A stretch of DNA of 41,118 nucleotides from an uncultured Candidatus Saccharibacteria bacterium (lineage in GTDB: Bacteria > Patescibacteriota > Minisyncoccia > Phycocordibacterales > GWA1-40-21), in the NCBI GenBank assembly GCA_964583845.1, contig CAZOXG010000002.1, positions 1 through 41,118 on the forward strand, written 5' to 3'. Positions 1-41,118 of this stretch are shown one piece after another. Position 1 is the stretch's first letter. Every line of letters begins with the position of its first letter. The notes beneath the pieces are model-generated. The model was given only the letters and a program-made list of their open reading frames with translations. It did not search any database and was not told where the DNA came from. The translations under genes were made by a program, and so were the position numbers.

Positions 1-60
1 GAAGCGGTTTTGTTTTTCTTATCATTCCTAGCTAGGTATACTAATAGTTAAAAAAGGAAT

Positions 61-97
61 AAAAAAACAGAGGTCGGATAATGATCCTTCCTCTGTT
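61..97 (-). terminator. intrinsic terminator ending the 2302..120 operon
   Basis: 7-bp stem ACAGAGG(67-73)/CCTCTGT(90-96). On the minus strand it is followed by a T-run (61-67), about 25 nt past the stop at 120. Confidence 0.55.
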
Positions 98-119
98 CGC
101 GCTATAGGCTGAGTGGTCC

Positions 120-1247
120 CTAGAAAGGACGGTACTTGAGCCTTATGGCACACGGGAAACCGGGTGGGACGTTCTGTTTAACGCCTGACACCATGAACTG
201 GACATCTGTTGCCCCGGCGGGCATGGACAGATGAGTCTGGTCGTCGCTGTCATAGGTCCGGAACTCCTTCGGATATCCGCCTTCCATTTTGTAGCAGGCG
301 GTGACGATGAAGCCAGACGACGCGGTTGCCCAGTTGAGATAACACAGACCTCTCTTGACTGGATAACCACTCGACCACTTGTCGGTAACTGTTATTACTG
401 TATCTGCAGGCACTGACTGTGACGGGGGCGTAATGACAATGGTGTTGCCAGCGCCAGACCGTCCCCATTCGATAAACTGCATCACAACTATACAGACTAT
501 CAGCAGCATTAGAAATTCCCAGACGTTGGCGCCGGAGGGTTTAACCTTGCCGGTGCGTACAGCTGAGAATATCAGGAAGACAACAACTGCGATTATAACA
601 ATCGCGAGCCAGTGTTCAGTTACCCAATCTTTCGACGTAGTAAGCCAAGCACTGTTTGTGGACGTAGTCACGTCATTCGTAGTTGCGGTGGCTGTCGAAG
701 GGGTTACGACTTGCGTCGGAACTTCCTTACCAACTCCCACCGCCTTGTTTCCGTAGTGATAGGAGGTCCACATCAGAATCGCAATGATTGCGACAATGAT
801 TGCAGACACGAGCCAATCACGCCAGGTTACTGCAACTCGTCCGACTATTGTTGAAAACCGAGGCCCTGTCCATTTCCGGGTGAGCCAGATAATGAGGCCA
901 CCAACGACAACCGACAGACACCAGGTGGTGTACTTCTTGAAGTCAATGGAAGCACTCTTTTTTGGACTCACATTAGGAACTACAGGAACGACTTGCGTCA
1001 TTTCCTGCGGTTCGACGGGAGTGACGGTCACGACTTGCGCCGTTTCCGCTTCCGCTACCTTAATTGTCGGTGTTGGGTTATCTTGACGGTTTACGACCCA
1101 GAAGGCCGTACCCCAAATCAAAACAACTACGAGGATGGTTACCCATCCTTTGACTGGTTTCGCCGTGACGGTGAGGTACCAGTGTTTGCTGGTGGCCCAG
1201 GCGATGAGCCCGAGCACCAGCAGGGAGAGTACCAGAATCGTATTCAT
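120..1247 (-). CDS. polytopic membrane protein, unknown function (three TM-TM-Thr/Val/Pro-linker repeats plus a ~110-aa Cys-containing C-terminal domain)
   Basis: 375-aa ORF with AAGGAG 8 nt before the ATG. It starts 14 nt after the upstream SPFH-like gene, so the two form an operon. Hydrophobic pattern read from the translation. G+C visibly above the backbone. Confidence 0.7.
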   Translation of the reverse strand: MNTILVLSLLVLGLIAWATSKHWYLTVTAKPVKGWVTILVVVLIWGTAFWVVNRQDNPTPTIKVAEAETAQVVTVTPVEPQEMTQVVPVVPNVSPKKSASIDFKKYTTWCLSVVVGGLIIWLTRKWTGPRFSTIVGRVAVTWRDWLVSAIIVAIIAILMWTSYHYGNKAVGVGKEVPTQVVTPSTATATTNDVTTSTNSAWLTTSKDWVTEHWLAIVIIAVVVFLIFSAVRTGKVKPSGANVWEFLMLLIVCIVVMQFIEWGRSGAGNTIVITPPSQSVPADTVITVTDKWSSGYPVKRGLCYLNWATASSGFIVTACYKMEGGYPKEFRTYDSDDQTHLSMPAGATDVQFMVSGVKQNVPPGFPCAIRLKYRPF

Positions 1248-1261
1248 ACTTCACACTCCTT

Positions 1262-2302
1262 TCAATGTGTACTGCCACTATCGGTAACAGTTGGGGGTTT
1301 GGCGCCGATATACAGATTTGTAAGTTGCGGCGTATTCTTGAGTTGCATGCCGAGCATGGCTAGACTAACATCCGTTCCCGGGGGGAGGTTGTCAATCAGG
1401 GCTTTGATTTCGGCCTTGGTGGCGTCGCCACGAGCCGTACCAAGGCGTTGGATCTGAGCGGCTTGAGCAATAGATTCAATTTCCAGAATCTTTGCTGCGT
1501 TGTCAGCTATCTTTCTTTGGCGCTCTAGCTCCTGCGCTTGTTTTGTATCTTCCTGGCCGCTCATGGCAACCTTTTGCAAGGTTTTGACCACATCTTTTTC
1601 AGTGAGATCAACACCCGTTCGTGATAGGGCTATTATTTCAAGTCCTGTTTGTTCTTCAATCTGAGTAGTGAAGGACCCTGCGGGCGCCGGTGGGGGCAAG
1701 GTTACTTTTAGGTATTCGCGGAGAGCTACTGCAATATCGCATTCTGTGCCGTTATACATAACCTTGCCATTGTAGACAAGCATGATGTTGTCTTGCGTAC
1801 CGATGATGCTTGTCATCGCCGCATTGATGATACCTAGGATGACTTTTTTAATTTCATCCTCACCGACAAGAAACATAGCCGTGTAAGCTTGTTTCGTTTC
1901 GGTTGTTAGGTTGAAGTGAAACACAAAGGGGACACCTTTAAGTTCCACTGGCAACGTCTCAAGATTCTCAAACACTTGACGATACTTCATTTTCAGAATC
2001 CTGCCCTTATTGGGAATCAGGCCCATGAAGAAATATCCGGTCGTGTGGGCAAACAGTGCACGAAGCGGTCCGACGGGGGCACCTTTTGGCTGACGATCAC
2101 CATTCTGGTCAAAGTGTTTGTCCTTTAACCCACAGTTAATCTCTAGGAGATTTCCCGCTTTGTTGGTGATCGCAATCACCGTGCCTTCTGGCCGTTCGGT
2201 GAATAGTGCGGGAAGCTTTTTGGGGAGCTTGAAAAGCACCCAGAAAGTTAAGACAAAAAACAGAAACCAGAAACCGATAAATAAGTAAGTAAACATGACC
2301 AT
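1262..2302 (-). CDS. SPFH/band-7-like membrane protein (by-eye call)
   Basis: 346-aa ORF with AAGGAGA 6 nt before the ATG. N-terminal anchor FIGFWFLFFVLTFWVLF, a globular middle, and a C-terminal Ala/Gln/Glu-rich helix QAQELERQRKIADNAAKILEIESIAQAAQIQ as in SPFH tails. Confidence 0.5.
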   Translation of the reverse strand: MVMFTYLFIGFWFLFFVLTFWVLFKLPKKLPALFTERPEGTVIAITNKAGNLLEINCGLKDKHFDQNGDRQPKGAPVGPLRALFAHTTGYFFMGLIPNKGRILKMKYRQVFENLETLPVELKGVPFVFHFNLTTETKQAYTAMFLVGEDEIKKVILGIINAAMTSIIGTQDNIMLVYNGKVMYNGTECDIAVALREYLKVTLPPPAPAGSFTTQIEEQTGLEIIALSRTGVDLTEKDVVKTLQKVAMSGQEDTKQAQELERQRKIADNAAKILEIESIAQAAQIQRLGTARGDATKAEIKALIDNLPPGTDVSLAMLGMQLKNTPQLTNLYIGAKPPTVTDSGSTH

Positions 2303-2340
2303 TCTCCTTTTTCCAAGACACTATTGTTTTGACAAGGAAT

Positions 2341-2362
2341 GAAGGCTGGCAAACAGGCCAAA
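2341..2362 (-). promoter_or_regulatory. conserved 5'-leader hairpin motif, copy 1 of 2
   Basis: Minus strand reads TTGGCCTGTTTGCCAGCCTTCA (stem TGGC/GCCA, loop CTGTTT). The homologous motif at 29901-29922 has stem TAGC/GCTA, a compensatory G-C to A-T change. Confidence 0.55.
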
Positions 2363-2407
2363 CTTCAACATCTGAAAGGGCATATAGGCTCCTTTCTTCC
2401 GTATTCT

Positions 2408-4306: not shown

Positions 4307-5014
4307 ATGAAACACTCATCGGCAATCCAAATGCTCAGGTTGTCTGAGCTGATCGCAAAGGGGTCAGAACATGCTTTAGAGAGGATTCTTCGGAATCCTG
4401 GAGTCTTTAAAGACCTTCTTGAGGCGGCTGAAATGAGAGAGGGAGATAATCGCTTTCATGGTCAGTCTCGCTGGGAAATTCGCAAGGCCCTTGGTCTTAG
4501 CAAATATCCAGCACCCGAAGTCTTTCAGATCTCTGTTGATGTTAACCCGTCGGTTAGTATTGAAGATTTGATTGGACTTGGAAAGTATCAGTATGTAAGT
4601 GCTGCTATGCAAGAGTCCATCAAGAACAATTTATTTGCCCGGGCCGAAAAGTCTGGAAAGGTTAAGATTTCTATCCTTCACTTTGATAGGGATATCATTT
4701 CCTACAATTCTGGTCACGAAATGTTGGAGGAGGTTGATCCAACTACGATTGAGAAAGAGATGCAAATAATCAATTGCATTCCTTTTAGTCCGAAGTATCG
4801 TCCGTTAAATATTGACGAACTTTTGGCGGTCGGGAGTCAGAAACCCGAGATCCAAAAGAAGTTCCCTTTGGTTGCCTATGGTTTGTTCTCTGGTCAGGCA
4901 AATGTTGCCTTGGACGACAGCGGACCACGACCTGAGCACCGCCGGTTGGTCGAATACAACTTCGACTGTAATGCCTTCTATGACTTCTACCGCATCCTTG
5001 CGGTGGAGACATAA
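4307..5014 (+). CDS. hypothetical protein (higher-GC ORFan)
   Basis: 235-aa ORF with GGAGAAAG 5-6 nt before the ATG. No motif recognised. Weak hairpin plus T-run at 5016-5067. Confidence 0.7.
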   Translation: MKHSSAIQMLRLSELIAKGSEHALERILRNPGVFKDLLEAAEMREGDNRFHGQSRWEIRKALGLSKYPAPEVFQISVDVNPSVSIEDLIGLGKYQYVSAAMQESIKNNLFARAEKSGKVKISILHFDRDIISYNSGHEMLEEVDPTTIEKEMQIINCIPFSPKYRPLNIDELLAVGSQKPEIQKKFPLVAYGLFSGQANVALDDSGPRPEHRRLVEYNFDCNAFYDFYRILAVET

Positions 5015-5379: not shown

Positions 5380-5395
5380 ATACAAAAAAACAGCT

Positions 5396-5480: not shown

Positions 5481-5481
5481 G

Positions 5482-8518: not shown

Positions 8519-9010
8519 ATGAATCTGCAAAAGTTTTCGAACCCAGCCTATGGGGGAAGCTATCGTTCCTGTTCGGGCATTCGTTGCAAGAACTACGCTG
8601 CCAAGATCGGCAACAGAAAGGTTCAAGTTGATGGTTTACAGTTTGAGTTGACAGGCACGAGAGAATTTCTCGGTTACTGCGACAGCTGCATTAAAGAGTT
8701 GCTTCGTCGGGAATGTCAGAAGTGGTTAACGCACGAAGCAAGTTTTTTCAGTCTTGACCGCTGCTCAAAGATAACCATCGATTGGTTCAATTTTTTTTCT
8801 TGTCTCAAACTCGGTGAAAAGAAACAGTTCGTTAGTTTTCTAAAGTACCTTCGAATACTGGTCAAAAACCCAGTTCGAAACCGTCGCATAAAAATTGAGG
8901 AATCTTTCTTTTGCGACAAGATGGGGACTGAGGTTTTTTACGCCAACGCTACTGTGGTTAGAAAAGTAAAGAAGGAGAAATCTAACTGGTTGTTCTCGCT
9001 CAGGGTTTAG
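8519..9010 (+). CDS. hypothetical Cys-containing protein (moderately higher-GC ORFan)
   Basis: 163-aa ORF with GGAGAAG 6 nt before the ATG. CSGIRC...CDSC pairs near the N-terminus. A strong terminator follows immediately. Confidence 0.6.
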   Translation: MNLQKFSNPAYGGSYRSCSGIRCKNYAAKIGNRKVQVDGLQFELTGTREFLGYCDSCIKELLRRECQKWLTHEASFFSLDRCSKITIDWFNFFSCLKLGEKKQFVSFLKYLRILVKNPVRNRRIKIEESFFCDKMGTEVFYANATVVRKVKKEKSNWLFSLRV

Positions 9011-13976: not shown

Positions 13977-14306
13977 TTAGACCTCGACATACCCGGTGAG
14001 AATTTTACTTCTCTTGACCTGTATGGCTTGGACTGATCGGCATAACACCTTTGCTAACTCTTGGTCAGACGGACGATCCGGGGAAGTAATCGTGGTGATT
14101 TCTCCCGGCATCCAAAACTGACCTTTGTTTGTGCTATGTGTTGTCCTAGTGGAGTAGTATGTTTTCTTTAACTCCACCTGTTTTGTAGGGTTCTTTTTCC
14201 TCCATTCTTTATTGGCACAGGTAATACAGACATGGTGACCAGTTGCTTTGCTCTTGTGCCCGTTTTTTTCGCGACCACAAATTGAGCAAATCGCTTTGAC
14301 TTTCAT
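13977..14306 (-). CDS. small zinc-ribbon protein with basic, possibly DNA-binding C-terminus (higher-GC ORFan)
   Basis: 109 aa. CSIC...CITC pairs. C-terminal SDQELAKVLCRSVQAIQVKRSKI is helix-turn-helix-like. Own promoter at 14349-14377. Confidence 0.6.
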   Translation of the reverse strand: MKVKAICSICGREKNGHKSKATGHHVCITCANKEWRKKNPTKQVELKKTYYSTRTTHSTNKGQFWMPGEITTITSPDRPSDQELAKVLCRSVQAIQVKRSKILTGYVEV

Positions 14307-14442: not shown

Positions 14443-14901
14443 TTAGATGACGACGTCGGGGATTTTGAAATTTTTGCCTTCAAGTTCTTTTTTTGCTGTC
14501 TCGCAACCAAAGGCTGCGGTCATCAAAGAGAACTGGGAAAGATTGGACAATTTAAGAGCCTTACCCTTCCTTGATTTTGTAGAATAAAAGCTGAGTAGTG
14601 AACCGCAGATTTCCATCCGGCGATTATTAGGAGACACCGAACAGATGTCCGAATAGATTCGCCACAAATGACCGTCACGACAGGCAAGAATATCATCGGC
14701 ACTTTCTACGGCCATAAGAGCAATGAGTCCTACTTCCAGTTCAATAAAATTTCCTTCTGAATCTTTGAGTTCGAGGGTAAACTTTGAACGGGAGTAAAAC
14801 TTCCTTGAGAAAGTTGCTTCCATCAGGTCGAACTTTGATGGTCCGTTGACGATTTCGTAGATGATTTTTTTGGAAGGTACAGACGTTGCTGTGGTTTCCA
14901 T
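14443..14901 (-). CDS. hypothetical protein (higher-GC ORFan)
   Basis: 152-aa ORF with AAGGAG 7 nt before the ATG. About 100-nt leader with hairpins. Confidence 0.7.
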   Translation of the reverse strand: METTATSVPSKKIIYEIVNGPSKFDLMEATFSRKFYSRSKFTLELKDSEGNFIELEVGLIALMAVESADDILACRDGHLWRIYSDICSVSPNNRRMEICGSLLSFYSTKSRKGKALKLSNLSQFSLMTAAFGCETAKKELEGKNFKIPDVVI

Positions 14902-15482: not shown

Positions 15483-15866
15483 ATGATGAGAACTTACCTT
15501 GTAGCGAGGTTTCCCGTTATTAACCTCATTCTCTGGTCACTGGAAGCGGTTAAATTACTGAATCTGGTCAAAGATCCAAAGGCTTGTGTGGACGCTCGTT
15601 ACGAGGTGTATGAGTCAGTTGTTTTCTTTGCCAATTCGGTTGAAAAGAAACTGATCGAGGGACATACTCTCAACGAATCATTTGACCTTTCAGAGCGCCT
15701 GTTGGAAACAGCTATTAGAGGGGAAATTCCTCATCGCTGCAAAATGCCTCTGGTGGTTGAGATATTGAGCCGTCACTCAACAAGAGCTCACGAACTCAAG
15801 TCCTGGTACGACACTCGTTGTCTTGCAAAAGAACAAGACATAACTCAACATGAGTTCGTCGGGTAA
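15483..15866 (+). CDS. hypothetical protein (higher-GC ORFan)
   Basis: ORF 15459..15866. The ATG at 15483 lies about 5 nt after GGAAAGGAAG. No motif recognised. Confidence 0.65.
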   Translation: MMRTYLVARFPVINLILWSLEAVKLLNLVKDPKACVDARYEVYESVVFFANSVEKKLIEGHTLNESFDLSERLLETAIRGEIPHRCKMPLVVEILSRHSTRAHELKSWYDTRCLAKEQDITQHEFVG

Positions 15867-16037: not shown

Positions 16038-16172
16038 ATGCTACAACAGTCCTGGTTCGCATGGTTCTTTGGACAGTTCAAAGAGAAGAAATTCGAGGCA
16101 GGCTTCCTGCTTCTCATTATCGTTTTGCTTGCGTGGTCACTGACAGTGCAAGTCAAAATTCCCACTCCATAA
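16038..16172 (+). CDS. 44-aa single-TM peptide (below the ORF-track cutoff)
   Basis: GGAGGGAG 7 nt before the ATG. Translation is MLQQSWFAWFFGQFKEKKFEAGFLLLIIVLLAWSLTVQVKIPTP. Its stop lies 16 nt before a strong terminator. The 88-aa track ORF in another frame runs through that terminator. Confidence 0.55.
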   Translation: MLQQSWFAWFFGQFKEKKFEAGFLLLIIVLLAWSLTVQVKIPTP

Positions 16173-16267: not shown

Positions 16268-16540
16268 TTATCGGATCAGTCTCCTGTTGAAAAGGTGATG
16301 TTCGTCTCTTCGTAAATAACATTCTTCGGCTGAAAGCCAGATACCAAAACGTGGGATTGGAAAGAGATCGCGCCAGTGATCAATTGGTTCATAATCAGGT
16401 AGCTTTAAATAACCAATGATAGCTATAGCCAATTCTTCTTCTCTTTCTCGTTGTTCTATTTGTTCTCCGACCTTCTTGATCCGAGCCTCTTCTTGTGGAT
16501 CTTGAGAATGTGCCTTAATAGTTTTATATTTGTTTTTCAT
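16268..16540 (-). CDS. hypothetical 90-aa protein (higher-GC ORFan)
   Basis: GGAGAT 6 nt before the ATG. Charged N-terminal helix. No motif recognised. Confidence 0.6.
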   Translation of the reverse strand: MKNKYKTIKAHSQDPQEEARIKKVGEQIEQREREEELAIAIIGYLKLPDYEPIDHWRDLFPIPRFGIWLSAEECYLRRDEHHLFNRRLIR

Positions 16541-17855: not shown

Positions 17856-18107
17856 ATGACAAATAAAAAAATGTTTCTTGCGCCATTGATGGCGGCTTGT
17901 GGAGCATCATCATCCCAAACAGTTTTTATTGTGAAACCTTGCCCAGTAAGTGAGTCCCCTGAATTTTTGTCAAAATCCATGTTGACACTGAAAACTGAAC
18001 ATGGAAAAGCTTCAGTCTGTCCATCACCGGCTGGCAAAAAACGTCAGAACAATGATTTTGGTCACAGTAAAAATTGTAAGTGGCCGGGGCGCAAAGTTCA
18101 GTTCTAA
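17856..18107 (+). CDS. small putative lipoprotein (83 aa)
   Basis: GGAGGA 5 nt before the ATG. The signal peptide ends in LMAAC (lipobox-like). Confidence 0.55.
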   Translation: MTNKKMFLAPLMAACGASSSQTVFIVKPCPVSESPEFLSKSMLTLKTEHGKASVCPSPAGKKRQNNDFGHSKNCKWPGRKVQF

Positions 18108-18132: not shown

Positions 18133-18387
18133 ATGAAGACTTTTTTCGCAGGCACTTTTATAATATTCGTTGGCTTATTCTTGCTTTATTCAGCTGGGGT
18201 TAGTAAACCAGTAACGAAGGATGACTCGAACCCGAGCAAGTTGTGTCAGGCTGTTGTGTCCAGAAGTTTCAGAATCAGGACTCGAATAAAACCCTCCCAT
18301 GTGCCGGTCAAAGGCAATAAAAACCTAGTACTGAAATCACAGGTAGAAGAGTCTTGGCAGGGCAGAAATATGGTCAGACAAGTATAA
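18133..18387 (+). CDS. small secreted or membrane-anchored protein (84 aa)
   Basis: AAGGAGGA 8 nt before the ATG. N-terminal hydrophobic helix FFAGTFIIFVGLFLLYSAG. A terminator follows. Confidence 0.6.
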   Translation: MKTFFAGTFIIFVGLFLLYSAGVSKPVTKDDSNPSKLCQAVVSRSFRIRTRIKPSHVPVKGNKNLVLKSQVEESWQGRNMVRQV

Positions 18388-25488: not shown

Positions 25489-25668
25489 TGTATTACTTCT
25501 ATAATTTTTAGGCAAATATTATTGTGATTTTTATATATATACGTCTCTGCGAAACTTTGCGAAGTAGTCCAGAAATCAGAATATCCATTAATACTAATGA
25601 AGACTGAGCTGGATTGCTTCGTCAGAATTCGCAGTGACGACATTCGTTAGTGATTAGTATTTTTACAT

Positions 25669-25714
25669 TAAAAAACCGCTTAGCTTTTCCCAGAGAGGAA
25701 AAGCCAAGCGGTTT
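25669..25714 (-). terminator. terminator of the 25725..26291 gene
   Basis: 18-bp imperfect stem AAACCGCTTAGCTTTTCC/GGAAAAGCCAAGCGGTTT. T-run on the minus strand. Confidence 0.75.
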
Positions 25715-25724
25715 GGCACAACCC

Positions 25725-26291
25725 TTATCCAGGGTGCCAATTAAAGAGACGATGCTTGATGCAGGCGGGTGTATGTCCTTTCCTCGGAATCAAGACAACC
25801 TTCACGGCCTGCAAAGTTTTCGATATGACCGCTACCTCATCCTTGGTCATAAAGTAAGCTGGTACATTGGACTGTTGTCCGTTGACCAACACTTTCTTGG
25901 CTCCACCACGCGTGATAAGGTCGCCGGTACTCGGACAGACCTGTACCATCACAAGATTTGTCTTCGGTGATGAGGCTTGAATGCACCACAGGTGATCCAT
26001 GGCATCCACGACGGCGCCGAAGACCAAGGTCTCGTCGCCATCATTGGATTGACACAGGCCGCGAGTGACAAGCTCTCCCTCAAGCTGGCTCACATTGACG
26101 AAGTCTTTACCGAGAGACTCTGTAGCCAGGCGGAGGATTGCTCTATGAAAGCGTTCGCTTTCGTCAAGAATACCTTGGCAAGTTGGCCGAAGGCAATTTG
26201 GAAACTGGCTGTCGGTTGTCAGGATGGCACTGAGAGTACCATCTACTTCTGCCACCACCAGTATCAAACTGACCGATCTCGTCTCTTTCAT
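25725..26291 (-). CDS. Nudix-fold-like protein with degenerate Nudix box (paralogue B)
   Basis: 188 aa with AAGGAGA before the ATG. GILDESERFHRAILRLATESLG keeps GX5EX7R, but REUXEE has become RLAxES. Alignable by eye to 28268..28795. Confidence 0.6.
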   Translation of the reverse strand: MKETRSVSLILVVAEVDGTLSAILTTDSQFPNCLRPTCQGILDESERFHRAILRLATESLGKDFVNVSQLEGELVTRGLCQSNDGDETLVFGAVVDAMDHLWCIQASSPKTNLVMVQVCPSTGDLITRGGAKKVLVNGQQSNVPAYFMTKDEVAVISKTLQAVKVVLIPRKGHTPACIKHRLFNWHPG

Positions 26292-26372
26292 TTGTTGGTC
26301 TCCTTAGAATTGTTTGTCGTGCAGAAGAATTGCCTTCTGCTAATCCAAAAACACTATAACATTTTTTATTAG

Positions 26373-26424
26373 AAATGGCAAATTAAAACCCCACACCAGG
26401 ACTTCCGAAGGGAAGTGAGTTGGT
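26373..26424 (-). repeat. 52-bp direct repeat, copy 1 (terminator hairpin plus -35 box)
   Basis: AAATGGCAAATTAAAACCCCACACCAGGACTTCCGAAGGGAAGTGAGTTGGT. 49/52 identical to 28199-28250. On the minus strand: hairpin ACTTCC-CTTC-GGAAGT, then GGGGTTTTAATTTGCCA. Confidence 0.85.
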
Positions 26425-26446
26425 TGTGCTGTAACAAACGCCTTAT

Positions 26447-28123
26447 TTATTTTCCTGGAGAAAAAGCCTGATCAAAATCAATTAAATATAACCTAGGAAA
26501 ACGATTAAAATCTGGTTTACCATTTTCATTTCTAAAAAATCTTAGACAAAAGTTGCCATCGTGAGGGTGACCATGTTCAAAATTTATACTACTTAACACC
26601 GCCTTTATTTTATTTTTTTGTTCTTCAAGTTCAGATTCAAATTTAGTTGATATTTCTTTCCACCTAGCCAAACTAAGATCTAAGACTCCACTATACACCC
26701 TAATTGAACCATTCTTATTAATGCTAAATGATTGGATTGGTTCTATTGGAACGTAATCAAAACCAGCCTGCTGCCACAGTTTCCAATTCTCATATATAGA
26801 TTGCCACGATAGAAAAGCTTCTGGTGTAATTTCTCTTATTATCGTTTTGTCTTTTAAGTCACCACCAAGTAAAATAGTTTCTGAACCTGTCTTATCAAAA
26901 TTAGCTCGAGAGAATTTTTCTTTTCTTACTGCTCCATTTTTGTATAATGCTGGTTTAATCAAGTATTCTTCTAAACCTTTTTCCTTCATTAATTTATACA
27001 ACCCTTTCCTTTCATTTTTGGGAATATAGTCAATCATTCCAATTGATGAGGTTTGCACTTTAGGATCAACACTTTCTAAACTCTGTCTAATCCTTAGTAA
27101 AACATTCTTCCACAAGGAAGGCTTTTCCGGCTCAGAGACAAAATTAATGTTATCAACTGATAGTATTTGAATCTCTAGATTTGAATGAGACAAACCTTCC
27201 CTGATAAGACTAGCTCTCTCATTTACAGGAGCAAACCGAATATTTTCAGCCGATATTTTTTGTACTTCTGGGTTAGGGTGATTAAAACCGTCTTTAATAA
27301 GGAGTGTTATTTCATCTTTGGGAGCATCGCCCATCATTAAAGCTGATGTAATTTGAACTTCTGGATTTGAATGAGACAAACCTTCTCTAATAAGTGTTGA
27401 TCTTTCGTCTCCAAATGCTCTTTCAATTATTTTAACTGATTCCACCTGAACTTTTGGGTTAGGGTGTTTTAAACATTCTCTAATAAGATTAGCTATCATA
27501 TTTTCAGGAGCAAACCGAATATTTTCAGCCGATATTTTTTGTACTTCTGGATTAGAGTGATTTAAACCTTCTTCAATAAGCGATAATGTTTTAGTTACTG
27601 GAGCATTGTCCAATAATTTGGCCGATGTAATTTGAACTTCGGAGTCAGTACTATTTAATCCATTTTTGATTTTTTGTAAAACAATTTCTCGCAGAAAACC
27701 CTTTTGAGTTTTAGGTGCAAACCAAATAGTTTCAGACGAAATTATTTGTACTTCTGGGTTGAGATGACTTAGACCTTCTTCAATAAGTGGTGTTATCTCA
27801 TCTTCTGATATAAATTTAATAGCCTCGGCTGCTGCTTTTTGCACCTCAGGGTCAGAATTAGCTAAGCCTTCTTTAATAAGAAAGAATGTTTTTGAGTTAG
27901 GAGTGAATAGACTTTCATTAATTTCATGCACCAAAGGTGAAATTTTCTTCTCTTTATTTTTAGTAATAATTAAATCAATCTTCTCATTATTTCTAATTTT
28001 ATCCTCTTTGTATCTATCAAAACTATGTTCAGTTATCTGATTTTGCCCAGGAATTTCATACATTTTCAAATATTTTGGTAGTGGTGACTCAGGACTTTCA
28101 ATTTTTTGCACAGGTCTTTCCAT
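26447..28123 (-). CDS. HEAT-repeat protein (about 9 repeats of ~31 aa) with a C-terminal protein-kinase-like domain
   Basis: Repeats of EGLxHxNPEVQxxSAxxIxFAP. The C-terminus has HGHPHDGNFCL (catalytic-loop-like) and LYLIDFDQA (DFD). The ATG at 28123 is preferred (MERPVQ). Low G+C. Confidence 0.7.
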   Translation of the reverse strand: MERPVQKIESPESPLPKYLKMYEIPGQNQITEHSFDRYKEDKIRNNEKIDLIITKNKEKKISPLVHEINESLFTPNSKTFFLIKEGLANSDPEVQKAAAEAIKFISEDEITPLIEEGLSHLNPEVQIISSETIWFAPKTQKGFLREIVLQKIKNGLNSTDSEVQITSAKLLDNAPVTKTLSLIEEGLNHSNPEVQKISAENIRFAPENMIANLIRECLKHPNPKVQVESVKIIERAFGDERSTLIREGLSHSNPEVQITSALMMGDAPKDEITLLIKDGFNHPNPEVQKISAENIRFAPVNERASLIREGLSHSNLEIQILSVDNINFVSEPEKPSLWKNVLLRIRQSLESVDPKVQTSSIGMIDYIPKNERKGLYKLMKEKGLEEYLIKPALYKNGAVRKEKFSRANFDKTGSETILLGGDLKDKTIIREITPEAFLSWQSIYENWKLWQQAGFDYVPIEPIQSFSINKNGSIRVYSGVLDLSLARWKEISTKFESELEEQKNKIKAVLSSINFEHGHPHDGNFCLRFFRNENGKPDFNRFPRLYLIDFDQAFSPGK

Positions 28124-28198
28124 AGAAGAAATATAGCATAAAACTATATTAGTTTCGAATTTTGATAAAATATAAAAGTGTATATGGTAAGGCAATAA

Positions 28199-28250
28199 AA
28201 ATGGCAAATTAAAACCCCACACCAGGACTTCCGAGGGGAAGTGAACTGGT
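28199..28250 (-). repeat. 52-bp direct repeat, copy 2
   Basis: See 26373-26424. Lies 17 nt past the stop of 28268..28795 and supplies TTGCCA as the -35 box for the HEAT gene. Confidence 0.85.
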
Positions 28251-28267
28251 GGAGGTTTGGGATAGAC

Positions 28268-28795
28268 TCATGATAGTTTGTTGAAGAGTTCGGAGGCAAT
28301 TTTGACCGCCTTGAGTTCGTCATCAAACATGGTGATACCCTCAAGTGGGGCTCCGGCCATCATCATTTCCTTGGTTGCGATTCTCACGTTGGGCAGGTCT
28401 CCCCGGTGGATTTTGACCAGGCCACCGGTGCTGGGGCCGAGTCTAATCCAGTCGAGCGATTCAAGGGAGACCACACACCCGAAGGTGGTCATCTCTTTCT
28501 TGTTAGTGACCAAAGTCACCAATTCGGTCAGTCCGGTTTCTTCGCCAATCCTTTTGATGTGGTCGGCGAAATGTGGGCCGAGTTCTTCTTCAATTTCACG
28601 CATCAGACCGGCAATAGGAGTTTCGCCGGCATTGAGTTTGCCGTGGCAAGTGACTTGTGTCACGCCAGCAAAGAGTGAAGGGCTCATTTCACGTTCGGTG
28701 CTATAGGCACCACGTTTTTGACCAATCGCGACCATCTGTCCATCAAGGTCCGTGATGAGAACAATCAGTCCGGCACCTTTTTCTTTTTCCGACAT
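28268..28795 (-). CDS. Nudix hydrolase-like protein with intact Nudix box (paralogue A, higher GC)
   Basis: 175 aa with AAGGAGA 7 nt before the ATG. GKLNAGETPIAGLMREIEEELG fits GX5EX7REUXEEXG. Confidence 0.75.
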   Translation of the reverse strand: MSEKEKGAGLIVLITDLDGQMVAIGQKRGAYSTEREMSPSLFAGVTQVTCHGKLNAGETPIAGLMREIEEELGPHFADHIKRIGEETGLTELVTLVTNKKEMTTFGCVVSLESLDWIRLGPSTGGLVKIHRGDLPNVRIATKEMMMAGAPLEGITMFDDELKAVKIASELFNKLS

Positions 28796-28831
28796 GGAGT
28801 GTCTCCTTTGTATGGTTCAGTGAACAGTGTC

Positions 28832-28851
28832 ATCAGAAAACGTTTTCTGAT
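28832..28851. promoter_or_regulatory. perfect 20-bp palindrome in the leader of 28268..28795
   Basis: ATCAGAAAACGTTTTCTGAT, lying between the candidate promoter (TTGACA near 28885) and the RBS. Confidence 0.5.
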
Positions 28852-28904
28852 CAAGTTCGTTCATTTACACAATATAACTAATTTCATCTTTGTCAAATAT
28901 ATAT

Positions 28905-28943
28905 AAAAAAACACCTCAAGGCCGATAGGTCAGCCTTGAGGTT
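28905..28943 (-). terminator. terminator of 28957..29850
   Basis: ACCTCAAGGC-10 nt-GCCTTGAGGT. T-run on the minus strand. Confidence 0.8.
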
Positions 28944-28956
28944 GAGGACATATGAA

Positions 28957-29850
28957 TTATCCTTTCTTGTCATTCGCATTCGTTGGACGGTGATAGTCTT
29001 CCATCACCACGTCCCGGATTTGATACCGGGTGATTTCCTTGTTGATGTTCATGGGTAGGCTCGGAAAGCCAATGCAATCCTTGCCGATTATCAACTGGTA
29101 GGGCTCGTTGGTCGAGTTCTCGTACCAGATGGGATCATAGGTGATGTAGCGATGCTTCACCCAGTCCTTTTCTGGTTTGTCGACCAACTCGAGTTCCCAC
29201 TTTTTGAACAGCGTAAAGGCCCAGCCGTGTTTCTTGCCATCGTCGGTAACGACGGCGAAGATACAGGGAACGTCGCCGAAGGTACAGCCGGTGCCGGGAA
29301 TGTTACCGGACCTGTGAACACGGCCAGCTCCCGATGTCGCTGCGAAGCTTTCAATCACCACGGCGTCTTTGGGAAAGGCGTACAGGTCGGCGATGTCGCG
29401 ACCCTTGTTCAGTTCCCAAAGCGGCAGAAGACAGGCGCTGCGCTTACATGTTTTGGGGTTCACACCTTCACTGATCACGAGCTGAGGCAGTTCGTGAAAA
29501 TAAATGACGGCGTTCGGTGGCACGCAAGGGAGAGTTTGCAGTTTTCCGTCATGGCAGACGAGGGTACTGCAAGCATAACGCATGAGTCTGAACTCTGGCC
29601 AGGTGGATTCGTAGTAAACCGTGACGACGTGGGGTTCGCACTCTGACACCTCCAGTTCTATCGCTTTCTTGCCGGTCGGGAACTCCATCGGTATAACGAC
29701 CTTGCTCCGGTCGTTCCAGATCTCGATACCTCCCTTGGCCTTCTTGGCATAGGCCACATTGTTCTTGTTGGGCGAACCGGGAATAAAGAACTTCACCGGA
29801 TCTTTGATGCTCATGGATTCGACTTGGATACGAGTGAATTCCTTCGTCAT
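28957..29850 (-). CDS. hypothetical Cys-rich protein (highest-GC ORFan in the window)
   Basis: 297-aa ORF with AAGGAG 8 nt before the ATG. 12 Cys. No motif recognised. Confidence 0.75.
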   Translation of the reverse strand: MTKEFTRIQVESMSIKDPVKFFIPGSPNKNNVAYAKKAKGGIEIWNDRSKVVIPMEFPTGKKAIELEVSECEPHVVTVYYESTWPEFRLMRYACSTLVCHDGKLQTLPCVPPNAVIYFHELPQLVISEGVNPKTCKRSACLLPLWELNKGRDIADLYAFPKDAVVIESFAATSGAGRVHRSGNIPGTGCTFGDVPCIFAVVTDDGKKHGWAFTLFKKWELELVDKPEKDWVKHRYITYDPIWYENSTNEPYQLIIGKDCIGFPSLPMNINKEITRYQIRDVVMEDYHRPTNANDKKG

Positions 29851-29900
29851 GGTGTGACTCCTTTTCTTTTTACTTTATTGACATTTTACAAACAACACTG

Positions 29901-29922
29901 TGAAAGCTAGCAAACAGGCTAG
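29901..29922 (-). promoter_or_regulatory. conserved 5'-leader hairpin motif, copy 2 of 2
   Basis: Minus strand CTAGCCTGTTTGCTAGCTTTCA. See 2341-2362. Confidence 0.55.
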
Positions 29923-29937
29923 TTTCGGTTCAAAAAC

Positions 29938-29966
29938 ATACTATAACATAATATCTATTTAGTCAA
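29938..29966 (-). promoter_or_regulatory. promoter of 28957..29850
   Basis: Minus strand TTGACT, 17-nt spacer, TAGTAT. Confidence 0.6.
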
Positions 29967-30003
29967 TATAATATAGACAATATATGAATTTTGTTATATT
30001 TAA

Positions 30004-30032
30004 GTTGACAGCAGTAATTATATAGTATATAA
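30004..30032 (+). promoter_or_regulatory. consensus sigma70 promoter (divergent)
   Basis: TTGACA, 17-nt spacer, TATAAT. An exact consensus match. Confidence 0.75.
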
Positions 30033-30100
30033 TTTTTACCGAATTGGTTTCATGTCTGAAGGCATGGAATAAGAAGCTTCAATTTTTAAGGAGACAGAAA

Positions 30101-30307
30101 ATGTATACGGAAATGCCCAAACAGTCGTCTACTTTCATGGAACTAACAGTCTTCACTACCGGTTTTTTGGTCGGTATCTGGAGTCTGGGAATTGCTGAAC
30201 TGCGTTTCTGGGACACCGAAAGGCGTCGCGCCTTGTTCTATGTTTCCGTTACGGAACTTTACGGTCTTCAGGCCAGCATTCTATTTCTCGGTACCTACCA
30301 ACGGTAG
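30101..30307 (+). CDS. 68-aa single-TM protein
   Basis: AAGGAGA 7 nt before the ATG at 30101 (in frame within track ORF 30044..30307). TM is LTVFTTGFLVGIWSLGIA. Two terminator hairpins follow. Confidence 0.6.
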   Translation: MYTEMPKQSSTFMELTVFTTGFLVGIWSLGIAELRFWDTERRRALFYVSVTELYGLQASILFLGTYQR

Positions 30308-30371
30308 TGTACATCAAGCCATCCGGCTCATCGGTCCCTCAAGGATCGGAGCTGGGTGGTTTTTTAATTAA

Positions 30372-30409
30372 TACCGCCCGGCTCGCAAAGCGAGCCGGGC
30401 GGTATTTTA
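30372..30409 (+). terminator. intrinsic terminator (second of two)
   Basis: TACCGCCCGGCTCG-CAAAG-CGAGCCGGGCGGTA followed by TTTTA. A weaker hairpin plus T-run lies at about 30322-30365. Confidence 0.75.
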
Positions 30410-30411
30410 AT

Positions 30412-30495
30412 TTATTTTGTGTCTGCAACCTCAGCCAGTTTATGTGGATTATGATTAGGACAATTCTTATCACTACATCTATCTGGTATGGTCTT
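30412..30495 (-). pseudogene. displaced 3'-terminal fragment of topA (27 codons plus stop)
   Basis: Minus-strand translation is KTIPDRCSDKNCPNHNPHKLAEVADTK*. The first 20 aa are identical to the end of intact TopA, with 12/60 nt different and all differences synonymous. Confidence 0.8.
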
Positions 30496-30497
30496 TG

Positions 30498-30628
30498 GTC
30501 ACAAATATTTTCTCGCCGTCGCTCAAAAATTTTGCCGACCCCGGCTCAGTATTGCTCGTTGCTACTCGCAATATACTTCCGCCTCACAAAAACTAAAAAC
30601 AGACAGCGAAGACTGTCTGTTTCTTACA
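30498..30628 (+). mobile_element. mini-element copy H (type-1 core plus terminator), behind topA
   Basis: GTCACAAATATTTTC-TCGCCGTCGCTC-AAAAATTTTGCCGACCCCGGCTCAG-TATTGC..GCAATA-TACTTCCGCCTCAC, then the AAACAGACAG-6 nt-CTGTCTGTTT hairpin (30597-30622) directly before the topA stop. Confidence 0.85.
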
Positions 30629-37912: not shown

Positions 37913-38125
37913 ATGGCTAATAAATATTCCAAACTGCATCTGGTGGCTGTGTTGCCAAAGTTGTGCCGTTCCAAGGCAAAACTTTCTCAGTCTTCACGCC
38001 CAAGTGTTTCAACAGCCAAAACATATTTGGTGACTGGTCATTTTATTGGGTGCGTTCCGAGTCCAAATCTCCTGGCCCAAGTTCGGAGAGAAGTTTTGAT
38101 CTCAAGAAAAAGATTCGCACCCTAA
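37913..38125 (+). CDS. possible 70-aa basic protein (frame uncertain)
   Basis: AAAGGAA about 9 nt before the ATG, and the stop lies before the terminator at 38132. An overlapping frame (37963..38175) has codon usage closer to the other islands but no RBS, and it runs through the terminator. Confidence 0.3.
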   Translation: MANKYSKLHLVAVLPKLCRSKAKLSQSSRPSVSTAKTYLVTGHFIGCVPSPNLLAQVRREVLISRKRFAP

Positions 38126-38131
38126 GTGAAT

Positions 38132-38162
38132 TGCTCGAGGAACCACCTCGAGCACTTTTTTG
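38132..38162 (+). terminator. intrinsic terminator
   Basis: TGCTCGAGG-AACCA-CCTCGAGCA followed by CTTTTTT. Confidence 0.8.
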
Positions 38163-38163
38163 G

Positions 38164-38191
38164 TTGCATATTTAAAATAAAAATATAGAAT
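38164..38191 (+). promoter_or_regulatory. promoter of the 38237 gene
   Basis: TTGCAT, 16-nt spacer, TAGAAT. Confidence 0.6.
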
Positions 38192-38236
38192 AGCGCTTAG
38201 GTGTTTCCAATAATTGTTCCAAAAGAAAGGCCAAAA

Positions 38237-38761
38237 ATGAAAACGAAAATTTCGATCGTGCCGTTTGTAAAATTGCCGAAGGTTGGTGTATCCGCACTAC
38301 TGCTTCGTCGCCCTGGTTATGATTTTACAAATTTGCGACCAAACTATTTTCCGTACGTGCTGGAAAGTATGTGTCAGGGTCAATTCAGTGATCAGTACTC
38401 GACTCAACTCGATACTATTAACGAATTGTGTCGGACGAAGGAGTTGGCTGCTGTTTGGTCAGTTTGCGTGGCGATCTCCACGGTGCTCTATGAGAATAAG
38501 ACCATGGCTGGACGGCACCTCGTTTGCGGGTGTATTATCCCTCAACCGAGCAAAAACATCCCTTTGCTAAATCTTGGTGTTGGGGTTGGCGAATTGGTTC
38601 CGATTTCAAGACAGATCTTGCCGTCGGTAATGATTCCCGACGCAAGAATGAAACGTGATGGACCAATGGCCCACCGGGTTTTGGTTGCTCCAACGATTCT
38701 GATTGAGTCAATGGAGAAAGGTTTCGAAACCTTCTCTCATTACAGCACTGAAGTTTGGTAG
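38237..38761 (+). CDS. Nudix-fold-like protein, strongly degenerate box (paralogue C)
   Basis: The ATG at 38237 follows AAAGAAAGG. MCQGQFSDQYSTQLDTINELCRTKEL aligns by eye with TCQGILDESERFHRAILRLATESLG of paralogue B. Catalytic Glu residues are lost. Confidence 0.5.
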   Translation: MKTKISIVPFVKLPKVGVSALLLRRPGYDFTNLRPNYFPYVLESMCQGQFSDQYSTQLDTINELCRTKELAAVWSVCVAISTVLYENKTMAGRHLVCGCIIPQPSKNIPLLNLGVGVGELVPISRQILPSVMIPDARMKRDGPMAHRVLVAPTILIESMEKGFETFSHYSTEVW

Positions 38762-38766
38762 ATTGT

Positions 38767-38801
38767 GGCAAGACTCGATTTGCGAGCTTGCCCTTTTTTT
38801 T
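38767..38801 (+). terminator. intrinsic terminator
   Basis: GGCAAG(A)CTCG-ATTTG-CGAGCTTGCC followed by CTTTTTTTT. Confidence 0.75.
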
Positions 38802-38919
38802 AATCAAAAAACATTCAAATAATGCTGTGTCTATATTGCTAAAGTATTCTGAGAAGTGTTTAATTGTTGCTGAACAAGATGATTGCATCTTGCGTTAAAA
38901 ACTCAAAAAGGAGACTACT

Positions 38920-39123
38920 ATGCCCAACAATGAAACTGATGCTAATGTCATCGGAAGCCAGGATAACCAAGGTTCGGAATTTCCGGATTTCGTCCATCCA
39001 AATATGGCCGAACATGGTCAGGCTGGAAAAGATCAGCCCCTTTGGGATTATGCTTGCCCGGCCGAGGTATCATCGACTGGAGCGTTTGATAGCGTGCCCG
39101 GAGTCATTATCGACGGTCGTTGA
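38920..39123 (+). CDS. 67-aa acidic protein (ORFan)
   Basis: AAGGAGA 7 nt before the ATG. Terminator at 39196. The leader carries hairpin CAAGATG-ATTG-CATCTTG. Confidence 0.6.
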   Translation: MPNNETDANVIGSQDNQGSEFPDFVHPNMAEHGQAGKDQPLWDYACPAEVSSTGAFDSVPGVIIDGR

Positions 39124-40335: not shown

Positions 40336-40367
40336 TCAAGATTAGATACTACAATAAATAAGCAACA

Positions 40368-40408
40368 AACCCGGTTTTTTCACAAGCAAAAAACCGGACT
40401 TTGTTTTT
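40368..40408 (+). terminator. intrinsic terminator after dnaX
   Basis: CCGGTTTTTT-7 nt-AAAAAACCGG followed by a T-rich tail. Confidence 0.65.
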
Positions 40409-40415
40409 ATCGACT

Positions 40416-40444
40416 TTGACAAATCAATAAAAACATGATAAACA
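40416..40444 (+). promoter_or_regulatory. candidate promoter of the 40489 gene
   Basis: TTGACA, 17-nt spacer, TAAACA. 20/25 nt shared with 22040-22064. Confidence 0.5.
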
Positions 40445-40488
40445 ATATAATGAAGTTCTAGTACCAATTTATAACGGAGGAAGTGACA

Positions 40489-40947
40489 ATGAACAAGACT
40501 TTTTGTTTGAAGGCCGAGATCTTGACCGGAAACACAGTTTCAGTCTTTGAATTTCGCGGACATGTACACAAGCAGTCCCCAATCGGACTTATTCTTGATG
40601 AAACTCAATTCTACTCGACCTGGGGTGAGGTACCGTCTGGTATCCACCATGAAATCGAAATCTTGAGACCGCCGGTCTGGGTCAATGACAACTGGCCGGC
40701 GAGAATTCATACTTATCGGCCGGTAACTGACAACACCAGACACTTCGTATGCTATCCGCGACCGATTCCGGATGAGAGGAAACTTGAAGAAGTTATCAAG
40801 TTGTGGTGTGTGGGTACGGCTTATACACTGCTTACAGATAATGACTTTCAGTTACACCCACTGATAGTCGCTGGCAATAAGCCTGCTTTCTTCGAGGAGA
40901 TGGAGCGAGTCTACGGTATCCGTTTCCTCACGTTCGAGATACTCTGA
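40489..40947 (+). CDS. hypothetical protein (higher-GC ORFan)
   Basis: GGAGGAAG 6 nt before the ATG at 40489 (the track start at 40483 is a GTG). 152 aa. No motif recognised. Confidence 0.7.
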   Translation: MNKTFCLKAEILTGNTVSVFEFRGHVHKQSPIGLILDETQFYSTWGEVPSGIHHEIEILRPPVWVNDNWPARIHTYRPVTDNTRHFVCYPRPIPDERKLEEVIKLWCVGTAYTLLTDNDFQLHPLIVAGNKPAFFEEMERVYGIRFLTFEIL

Positions 40948-41066
40948 AAACGAGATCTGAATGTTAATCAAAACCATCGCGCATGCTGTGCCGGTGGTTT
41001 TATATTTAAATACTGGATTTTATTATTCTTTTATAGTAAATTAGAGCAGTTAGTTGAAAGTGTTAT

Positions 41067-41118
41067 TGCCAGATCGTCTAAAGGTAGGACAGTGGCCTTT
41101 GAAGCCATCAATCTTGGT
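41067..41118 (+). tRNA. tRNA-Gln (anticodon UUG), 5' part only, truncated by the window end
   Basis: TGCCAGA acceptor strand, D arm GTCT-AAAGGTA-GGAC, anticodon stem GTGGC/GCCAT, loop CTTTGAA. Confidence 0.7.

Follow-up and report, generated by a model that had tools for sequence, protein, structure and literature searches.

Small GC-rich gene islets with Shine-Dalgarno-led starts lie between Shine-Dalgarno-less housekeeping genes in a Paceibacteria-type chromosome segment

What are the small, GC-rich groups of unrecognized genes that interrupt the low-GC housekeeping genes of an uncultured lake bacterium, and where do they come from? The question is raised by contig CAZOXG010000002.1 of assembly GCA_964583845.1, analyzed here over its positions 1 to 41,118 (41,118 nucleotides; the window). 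The window is a chromosomal segment of an ultra-small uncultured Paceibacteria/Parcubacteria-type bacterium of the Candidate Phyla Radiation (CPR) from lake water, with a GC content of 39.5%, seven tRNA genes, and a backbone that encodes RbfA, IF2, cysteine desulfurase, ClpB, Alr, MiaA, ParB, a RelA/SpoT-HD protein, TopA, DprA, SerRS, Dus, and DnaX. Its closest GTDB species representatives are Paceibacterota metagenome-assembled genomes (TopA identity of 58-65%), matches in metagenomes reach a ClpB identity of 64-72%, and the sequencing runs that contain the window sequence are lake or freshwater metagenomes. We found that the islets differ from the backbone in base composition and, in an almost all-or-none manner, in the use of a Shine-Dalgarno (SD) sequence, and we favor, at a rough probability of 0.62, the reading that they are old, finely interspersed, moron-like cassettes acquired from an SD-using source.

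An inspection of the sequence by eye (the original prediction) had described the segments as GC-richer than the backbone, with a preference for C- or G-ending codons, and had allowed that computed codon usage might turn out no different. When 20 open reading frames (ORFs) within these segments were compared with 22 backbone genes, the GC content at third codon positions (GC3) was 0.472 ± 0.090 (range, 0.30-0.68) in the former and 0.285 ± 0.033 (0.21-0.34) in the latter (Mann-Whitney p = 6.6e-8). The codons named at the outset rose from backbone to islands, i.e., AAC from 0.25 to 0.48, AAG from 0.24 to 0.43, TTC from 0.21 to 0.46, GAC from 0.24 to 0.50, and ATC from 0.18 to 0.42. Because every G/C-ending codon was commoner in the islands (e.g., CTG, 0.05 to 0.22; ACG, 0.07 to 0.20) and GC at the first (GC1, p = 0.01) and second (GC2, p = 4e-4) positions was raised too, the shift is a general one toward GC, not merely a preference for NNC codons. 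Amino acid usage follows, with Cys, Trp, Pro, Val, and Thr up and Ile and Lys down. The GC-normalized dinucleotide distance delta* between islands and backbone was 82, compared to 36 ± 10 (maximum, 65) in 300 random splits of the backbone; random island halves (51 ± 14) and size-matched backbone halves (51 ± 16) showed the islands to be as homogeneous as the backbone. The island segments sum to 11,269 bp, or 27% of the window, in agreement with the early estimate of roughly a quarter. Weak or borderline by GC3 are 16268-16540 (0.30), 17856-18107 (0.35), 15983-16249 (0.37), 37913-38125 (0.39), and 22112-22624 (0.35), the last of which had been flagged from the start as nearer to backbone composition. 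Two GC peaks, at 5251-5750 and 21501-22000, are not protein islands; they correspond to tRNAs and structured-RNA elements.

The second distinction lies in the translation start. Of the 20 island ORFs, 15 carry AAGGAG or GGAGG at a distance of 5-9 nt from the ATG (mean anti-SD duplex, -7.5 kcal/mol), while the 22 backbone genes show no SD match at all (mean, -0.16 kcal/mol), so the strong AGGAG ribosome-binding sites noted by eye are borne out more strongly than first stated. A blind scan of both strands returned 20 SD-led ORFs of at least 40 aa, compared to 4.5 ± 1.7 in locally shuffled sequence; 16 of them fall within the predicted segments, and 13 of these 16 are the island genes themselves. 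A sister lineage, represented by three contigs (L083 and L175, which come from the 32.7/29.9-kb contig, and L177, from a contig of 25 kb), shows exactly the same dichotomy. Its SD cores are kept while the surrounding leader bases have diverged, which indicates that the SD is under selection. Low-GC accessory genes of the window (a HEAT-repeat gene, the Nudix gene 18593-19297, and 19609-20265) have native-type, SD-less starts. About 11 of the 22 backbone genes, and none of the island genes, carry a -10-like hexamer 6-15 nt before the ATG; this pattern, read from sequence, suggests that core mRNAs may be leaderless or near-leaderless and islet mRNAs leadered, and that leaderless mRNAs could be the norm for the core genome of the clade. 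Across the family-level clade, conserved genes match the SD at background rate only, and SD-led orphans are overrepresented in several loci and, in low-GC genomes, have a higher GC content than orphans that lack an SD. We consider this SD-based comparison more trustworthy than the fall of orphan-minus-core GC3 with rising core GC3 (r = -0.60, p = 0.006, zero crossing at ~0.46), which is given little weight since spurious ORFs would yield the same trend. Among individual starts, TATAAT, TATTAT, or TAGAAT ends 6-10 nt before the ATG at 10318, 16637, 19609-20265(-), 26447-28123(-), 36836, 32918, and 21169-21486(-), and SD-less starts with a -10-like hexamer close to the ATG were seen in the related loci L181 and L182 too.

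Matches to consensus-type promoters and to terminators flank most island genes. The near-consensus promoters of the original prediction are present, with one perfect TTGACA-17-TATAAT and one 11/12 match (Table 1) besides 10/12 matches at 28896-28869, 26381-26353, and 15034-15006, and strong terminator-like hairpins follow most island genes, as had been claimed. The structured leader of about 100 nt fared less well: the inferred leaders are 36-120 nt long, in keeping with the length, but folding reached z ≤ -1.5 relative to shuffles in 4 of 12 only.

The islands are not universally conserved in position, a possibility the original prediction had raised against itself. They are missing in family-level Paceibacteria that have kept the backbone order, and the flanking genes are adjacent there: RelA-TopA, Dus-DnaX, DUF4446-cysteine desulfurase, and MiaA-(tRNA)-ParB adjoin one another in loci L092, L003, L005, and ~20 others, at identities of 58-65% for TopA and 67-72% for ClpB. 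L092 (GC, 35.7%) has the order RbfA, IF2, DUF4446, cysteine desulfurase, a homolog of the gene at 10318, ClpB ... MiaA, ParB, RelA, TopA, DprA, and the genes flanking the window's 8519-9010, 22112-22624, and 25725-30307 abut in it. Translated searches (tblastn) of the island proteins against these family-level loci returned zero matches.

The sister lineage carries islets at the same sites, with GC3 of 0.46-0.68. Island genes compared with it have ratios of nonsynonymous to synonymous substitution rates (dN/dS) of 0.04-0.19 (0.26 for the 375-aa membrane protein), with indels that preserve the frame; in the most diverged small island genes, where the synonymous rate (dS) is saturated, the corresponding ratio of proportions of differences (pN/pS) is 0.24-0.31. 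The low ratios indicate that the island genes are real and under purifying selection, not decaying remnants. Turnover is visible nonetheless: the 152-aa gene 14443-14901 is confined to the window lineage and a 198-aa SD-led gene to the sister, and three low-GC genes (the Nudix gene 18593-19297, 19609-20265, and the HEAT-repeat gene 26447-28222) are window-only. Divergence is patchy, with dS of 0.04-0.6 over 5.4-13.9, 22.7-25.5, and 30.5-37.9 kb, and of 1.0-1.8 over 13.9-21.5 kb (including Alr and MiaA) and in the embedded islets 22112-22624 and 25725-30307; this pattern would most simply reflect recent homologous exchange between the two lineages in backbone tracts that end at or skip the islets.

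We propose that about 10 islets (0.5-2.6 kb, 1-5 genes each) were inserted between conserved housekeeping genes in an ancestor shared by a genus-level group of Paceibacteria; horizontal transfer from sources with canonical bacterial expression signals is the most likely route. Each cassette would be autonomous, its ORF preceded by a sigma-70-type promoter and a leader of 36-120 nt that bears a strong SD and followed by an intrinsic terminator, and would have entered a chromosome whose native genes are AT-rich, SD-less, and often preceded by a -10 box 6-15 nt before the ATG. Insertion may have occurred by transformation and illegitimate recombination at permissive intergenic or tRNA loci. The cassettes would then have been retained under purifying selection, with SD sites and high GC3 maintained and no amelioration. 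Consistent with such an origin, homologs of the 297-aa island protein in three unrelated contigs are SD-led amid SD-less, apparently leaderless neighbors.

Several results weigh against acquisition. Pfam searches of the window and ~60 kb of sister contigs revealed no integrase, transposase, conjugation, or phage hallmark genes; no phage homologs were found in PHROGs (a weak Nudix match only), INPHARED, or an IMG/VR profile scan; and no att-like direct repeats surround any GC-rich islet. The islets (0.5-2.6 kb; largest composite insertion, 5.1 kb) are below the ~10-kb size of genomic islands. A search for a donor found none: the island dinucleotide signature was no nearer to that of any GC-richer relative sampled than to that of its own backbone. 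Window coverage was zero in three metatranscriptome runs from the same lake samples. An anti-SD motif has been detected in only 48% of Parcubacteria 16S genes (PMC9297842), and the 16S 3' end of this organism is not in hand; L032, a more distant Patescibacterium, combines an intact anti-SD (GGATCACCTCCTT) with 15 of 15 ORFs lacking an SD, which makes an intact but mostly unused anti-SD plausible here.

The steady state of island GC is a further such point. Nine island genes provided 659 fourfold-degenerate sites in conserved codons for comparison between window and sister; GC at these sites (GC4) is 0.59 and 0.61, respectively, and the mixed classes are balanced (SW, 116; WS, 129; S, G/C; W, A/T). 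The probability of GC in the sister is 0.70 given GC in the window and 0.47 given AT, a memory term of 0.23; comparably diverged backbone genes (Alr, MiaA, EamA, and 16268-16540) have a memory term of 0.24 at a GC4 of 0.27 and 0.25. Decay under the backbone process would require an ancestral GC4 of ~0.95, and the site patterns expected from it (242, 302, 114) depart from those observed (270, 245, 144; chi-square, ~22), while a stationary model at 0.6 fits the island fourfold sites. Because GC4 is stationary at near-saturated divergence, the present island GC is not simply the fading signal of a donor. Relative to the core, it corresponds to a modest fixation bias (ΔS) of ~1.4, which would favor either G/C in the islets or A/T in the core. 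The test is subject to site heterogeneity and saturation, and a stationary GC4 does not contradict a foreign origin. Biased gene conversion was considered as the cause of the high GC and is unlikely: the tracts of low dS, which look recently recombined, are AT-rich backbone, and the islets are not homogenized.

The same steady GC4 of ~0.6 in both lineages favors a different reading, which we rate as unlikely though it is the chief rival, i.e., that the islets are a native, fast-turnover, lineage-specific gene class (e.g., surface or host-interaction proteins and nucleotide housekeeping) with SD-dependent initiation, whose GC-rich codon usage is held by selection, for instance on mRNA stability, structure, or decoding. 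Such a class would also account for the retention of the SD by selection, and it is consistent with a dinucleotide signature nearer to the islets' own backbone (78-82) than to most relatives (up to 250), with the recurrence of the gene class in several relatives though individual genes differ, with the likely paralogy of three Nudix-like genes, a hint at diversification within the genome, and with the intact anti-SD and SD-less core of L032. It does not readily explain why relatives with conserved synteny hold no orthologs, why the 297-aa family is patchy, or why GC1, GC2, and amino acid usage are shifted beyond synonymous sites; moreover, low-GC accessory genes with native-type signals show that accessory status alone does not give island composition. 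In a broader form, equally doubtful in our view, the clade would run two translation-initiation regimes, an SD-free, AT-rich core with largely leaderless or short-leader mRNAs and an SD-led, fast-turnover accessory class whose GC is actively maintained (ΔS ≈ 1.4). If so, the mosaic would be a regulatory or functional partition, such as condition- or host-contact-specific translation, beyond a record of transfer.

Altogether improbable, relative to the acquired cassettes we favor, is the account first proposed, in which integrative elements or prophages entered at tRNA genes and left the islets behind as cargo or decayed remnants, the GC-rich elements beside those genes marking their ends. Five of the six clear element loci do adjoin an islet, and the cassette anatomy resembles phage morons. 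The elements are ~120-nt GC-rich RNAs with a predicted three-way junction, convergent to six of the seven tRNA genes, and in their closing helix the 3' arm is a copy of the neighboring tRNA's T-loop and 3' end, which is reminiscent of att sites. Their sequence behaves like that of a conserved RNA: 22 of 34 predicted pairs show compensatory changes among seven aligned window copies, and a covariance model recovers 10 copies in the window and 40 in related loci, including close and family-level relatives. The elements are present in relatives that have no islets, including the orthologous MiaA-ParB site of L092, and their occurrence at the tRNA loci of islet-less relatives marks them as an old clade feature, not insertion scars. 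In addition, no element lies near 8519-9010, 25725-26291, 37913-39123, or 40489-40947. With neither mobility nor phage genes in the window and sister contigs, no match in PHROGs, phage genomes, or IMG/VR (nor one for the 297-aa and 346-aa proteins in tblastn against 50,697 phage records), and islet genes that are constrained with no sign of decay, the proposal of element or phage remnants is unsupported. Signs of an integron are likewise missing, as there is no integrase and no shared repeat after the ORFs.

At most, the element/tRNA loci are permissive places for insertion. The element family itself matches no Rfam family and could represent either a novel RNA linked to tRNAs or a mobile element of miniature size; together with a shared bidirectional terminator, elements form perfect palindromes at 21838-21878/21879-21919 and 19437-19468/19484-19515. 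De novo origin of the island genes from these GC-rich RNAs was considered and rejected, as the covariance model matches no island ORF and the 297-aa family has homologs of 28-42% identity elsewhere.

Very unlikely is translational selection, by which the islets would be highly expressed native genes with C-ending codons and strong SDs for efficient translation. The near-consensus promoters and strong SDs would suit such genes, as would the preference for NNC over NNT in all two-fold pyrimidine-ending families; however, G-ending codons (AAG, CAG, CTG, ACG, CCG) and GC1/GC2 are shifted as well, no tRNA-matching pattern is apparent, and ORFans absent from relatives are unlike typical highly expressed core genes. 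Lastly, although GC-rich DNA gives long chance ORFs (such ORFs overlie the tRNA/element loci 5190-5570, 21428-21967, and 30307-30693, and the listed ORFs 15983-16249 and 37913-38125 are doubtful), an artefact of chimeric assembly, binning, or chance ORFs is effectively refuted for the main genes by island/backbone junctions identical in independent ENA, JGI, and Logan assemblies, by even depth over islands and backbone with contigs spanning their borders in four lake metagenomes, by dN/dS of 0.04-0.26 with frame-preserving indels, and by the confident fold of the 297-aa protein. Metagenome contig ends point to strain variants at 22302/22807 and 28913.

The island proteins are almost all orphan ORFs (ORFans); apart from the Nudix-like and 297-aa proteins described below, they are membrane, lipoprotein-type, zinc-ribbon, or Cys-rich small proteins. 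Searches in Pfam, NCBIfam, PHROGs, PADLOC, and PDB sequences returned nothing apart from the Nudix protein 28268-28795, whose predicted fold was confirmed by Pfam (PF00293, 26.8 bits compared to a gathering score of 21.1, E = 5.8e-6) and whose Nudix box is readable as GKLNAGETPIAGLMREIEEELGP; the same box gave the single weak PADLOC match (E = 2e-4), and no defense system was otherwise found there. Alignment by hhalign of the 188-aa protein 25725-26291 with this 175-aa protein (probability, 66%; E = 5.5e-5; 32% identity over 112 columns) makes it a likely divergent paralogue, and 38237-38761 is possibly a third. The SPFH fold, also suggested by eye, fared differently: 1262-2296 has no Pfam, NCBIfam, or PDB sequence match, an AlphaFold2 (AF2) model from a 2-sequence alignment reached a predicted local distance difference test score (pLDDT) of 38, and the architecture of a transmembrane helix, an alpha/beta region, and a long helix is at best compatible with SPFH.

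Among 5.8 billion proteins, the three island proteins searched for homologs had near-identical relatives only, three of them for the 297-aa protein; an exhaustive HMMER search of 1.84 billion representatives gathered its family into 11 clusters, with 28-42% identity past the close ones. The AF2 model of this protein is confident and all-beta (pLDDT, 86.8), and no convincing fold match was found in PDB or BFVD, the best PDB hit being weakly beta-propeller-like (template modeling score ≤ 0.27). The family is patchily placed, and one homolog is GC-rich, with a GC3 of 0.59 among neighbors at 0.25.

The individual genes and the copies of the RNA element are listed in Table 1. The 375-aa membrane protein evolves fast, as judged from its identity and dN/dS, and the low sister identities of 17856..18107 and 18133..18387 mark these two as very fast-evolving or replaced. 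At 16038..16172, the small membrane protein is likelier to be the real gene than the enclosing ORF 15983-16249, which is doubtful.

Table 1. Island genes, insertions, and RNA elements of the window (SD, Shine-Dalgarno motif; pN and pS, proportions of nonsynonymous and synonymous differences; divergence values are relative to the sister lineage)
Feature	Position	Strand	Composition and signals	Relatives and context
375-aa multi-pass membrane protein, Thr/Val-rich linkers	120..1247	-	GC 0.52, GC3 0.58, SD AAAGGAGT	L177 ortholog 61% identical, dN/dS ~0.26
344-aa protein, N-terminal transmembrane helix and long C-terminal helix	1262..2296	-	GC 0.47, GC3 0.50, SD AAAGGAGA	Sister ortholog 87.5% identical, pN/pS 0.12; two homologs only among 5.8 billion proteins
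235-aa ORFan	4307..5014	+	GC 0.45, GC3 0.48, SD GTAGGAGA, terminator 5033-5059	Partial sister ortholog 68% identical, pN/pS 0.24
163-aa Cys-rich ORFan	8519..9010	+	GC3 0.51, SD ATAGGAGA, strong terminator 9013-9037	Sister ortholog 91% identical, dN/dS 0.15; lies between DUF4446 and cysteine desulfurase genes, which abut in L092, L093, L094, L097
109-aa zinc-ribbon-like protein (CxxC...CxxC)	13977..14306	-	GC3 0.49, 11/12 promoter 14377-14349, bidirectional terminator 13949-13969	dN/dS 0.044 and dS 1.5 relative to L175
152-aa ORFan	14443..14901	-	GC3 0.44, SD AAAGGAGT	Window lineage only; no homologs beyond own 90% cluster; segment 14380-15260 without counterpart in L175
127-aa ORFan	15483..15866	+	GC3 0.44, weak SD GAAAGGAA	Gene call also in L172; sister ortholog 66% identical, pN 0.20, pS 0.80
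44-aa small membrane protein	16038..16172	+	SD-led (blind SD scan), terminator 16187-16213	Called as gene in L175 too; 84% identical, pN/pS 0.24
90-aa protein, borderline member	16268..16540	-	Backbone-like GC3 0.30 yet SD TTTGGAGA (sister, AAGGGGGT)	Sister ortholog 78% identical, pN 0.13, pS 0.81
83-aa putative lipoprotein	17856..18107	+	GC3 0.35, SD-led	Sister counterpart 55% identical
84-aa membrane protein	18133..18387	+	GC3 0.46, SD-led	Sister counterpart 29% identical
170-aa ORFan	22112..22624	+	GC3 0.35, strong SD TAAGGAGA, terminator 22640-22664	Sister ortholog 60% identical, dS 1.4 (neighboring ParB 97%, dS 0.24); missing in L092, where MiaA, tRNA/element locus, and ParB run contiguously
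188-aa Nudix-like protein, degenerate Nudix box	25725..26291	-	GC 0.51, GC3 0.56, SD TAAGGAGA, terminator 25714-25673	dN/dS 0.10
175-aa Nudix hydrolase, intact GX5EX7REUXEEXGU box	28268..28795	-	GC 0.51, GC3 0.56, SD AAAGGAGA	dN/dS 0.06
297-aa all-beta protein of tiny family	28957..29850	-	GC3 0.68 (window maximum), SD AAAGGAGT, terminator 28942-28913	dN/dS 0.066
68-aa membrane protein	30101..30307	+	Perfect promoter 30005-30033, SD TAAGGAGA, 17-bp terminator 30370-30406	dN/dS 0.09
1.4-kb islet with three ORFs	37913..39123	+		Between Dus and DnaX, adjacent in L003 and other relatives
70-aa basic ORF, doubtful	37913..38125	+		Weakest coding evidence, dN/dS 0.34
174-aa possible third Nudix-like paralogue	38237..38761	+		Weak hhalign match to Nudix protein, E 0.002
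67-aa acidic ORF	38920..39123	+	SD-led	
152-aa ORFan	40489..40947	+	GC 0.47, GC3 0.54, SD ACGGAGGA	No family match
Largest insertion relative to conserved backbone, 5.1 kb	25516..30628			Between RelA/SpoT-HD and TopA, adjacent in ~20 relatives
RNA element copy	2684-2800	-		
RNA element copies	5128-5274, 5394-5486, 5626-5748, 15082-15204, 19336-19454	+		
RNA element copies	21604-21726, 21742-21856, 30485-30602	+		
RNA element copy, weak	3869-3950			

Other features of the window lie outside the islet class or at its edges. The low-GC, SD-less gene 26447-28222(-) encodes a 558-aa HEAT-like protein (591-aa ORF from an upstream GTG) with 93-nt (31-aa) internal repeats, and one metagenome holds a variant shorter by 279 nt, or three repeat units (27225->27505). 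This gene is bracketed by the sole flanking direct repeat found, a 55-nt pair of 93% identity at 26370-26424 and 28196-28250, and is missing in the sister lineage, where the two Nudix-like genes on either side are adjacent; the difference could be either an insertion with duplication or a deletion via recombination between the repeats. In L177, four tandem low-GC genes with T4SS_pilin (PF18895) at 4891-6590 adjoin the orthologs of 120-2302 on the left, just beyond what corresponds to window position 1, and these genes are SD-less and backbone-like. Synteny between window and sister ends just past the tRNA-Leu/element locus, at window position ~2795. A 59-nt direct repeat (83% identical; 30439-30497 and 30641-30699) joins the 3' end of topA to a stretch upstream of the element 30485-30602, and in L083 a 20-aa C-terminal fragment of TopA is likewise duplicated (7921-7980), which suggests that the topA 3' end was partly duplicated upon insertion of neighboring DNA.

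The usual bacterial pattern is for ORFans and acquired genes to be richer in AT than the core and to ameliorate with time. GC-rich, stationary islets thus make this clade a natural setting in which to ask what holds gene-specific GC content, whether selection, biased conversion, or ongoing exchange. Small acquired islets are to be expected in streamlined Patescibacteria; what stands out here is the near one-to-one match between composition class and initiation signal. In the literature searched, neither so near-perfect an overlap between atypical composition and SD use within a clade whose core lacks SDs nor the compositional stationarity of the islets was found described. In practice, an SD combined with GC3 offers a sequence-only marker that separates native from accessory genes in poorly annotated genomes, and the island genes (membrane or lipoprotein-type, Nudix-like, and the all-beta family) may underlie biology that is specific to this lineage within a group of uncultured episymbionts.

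Among known systems, Bacteroidota keep an intact, little-used anti-SD. Genomes with an SD-less or leaderless core, such as the leaderless 'group C' genomes and 'atypical genes' of GeneMarkS-2 (PMC6028130), resemble the window in having core genes with no SD and with an A/T-rich upstream or a -10 box just before the ATG, a pattern shared by the rest of the clade and by L032. The difference is that here the strongly SD-led minority coincides almost perfectly with the atypical, lineage-specific genes, and its SD is conserved between lineages. Horizontal gene transfer islands are already known in Patescibacteria, where they are many, make up as much as 13% of genome length, and are mostly exchanged inside the phylum (PMC12455944); on the favored reading the islets are a variant of these, alike in atypical composition, sporadic distribution, sizeable genome fraction, and mostly hypothetical proteins. 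Compared to these and to classical islands, the islets are far smaller and finer-grained, exceed the core in GC rather than in AT, carry neither an integrase nor direct repeats at their flanks, and differ categorically in initiation signal. Integron cassettes likewise build up in a genome as small units, each with a single ORF of unknown function, whereas the islets have no IntI, attC, or array, carry their own promoters, and are scattered.

Phage morons, which Hendrix/Juhala et al. are said to have described in 2000 as autonomous promoter-ORF-terminator units between conserved genes, share with the islets the single or few genes, the possession of their own promoter-like and terminator-like signals, the position between otherwise adjacent genes, and the deviant composition. 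Unlike morons, the islets lie in the backbone of a cellular chromosome (IF2, ClpB, TopA, SerRS, and DnaX) that has no phage genes or homologs, and as cassettes they are old and compositionally stationary.

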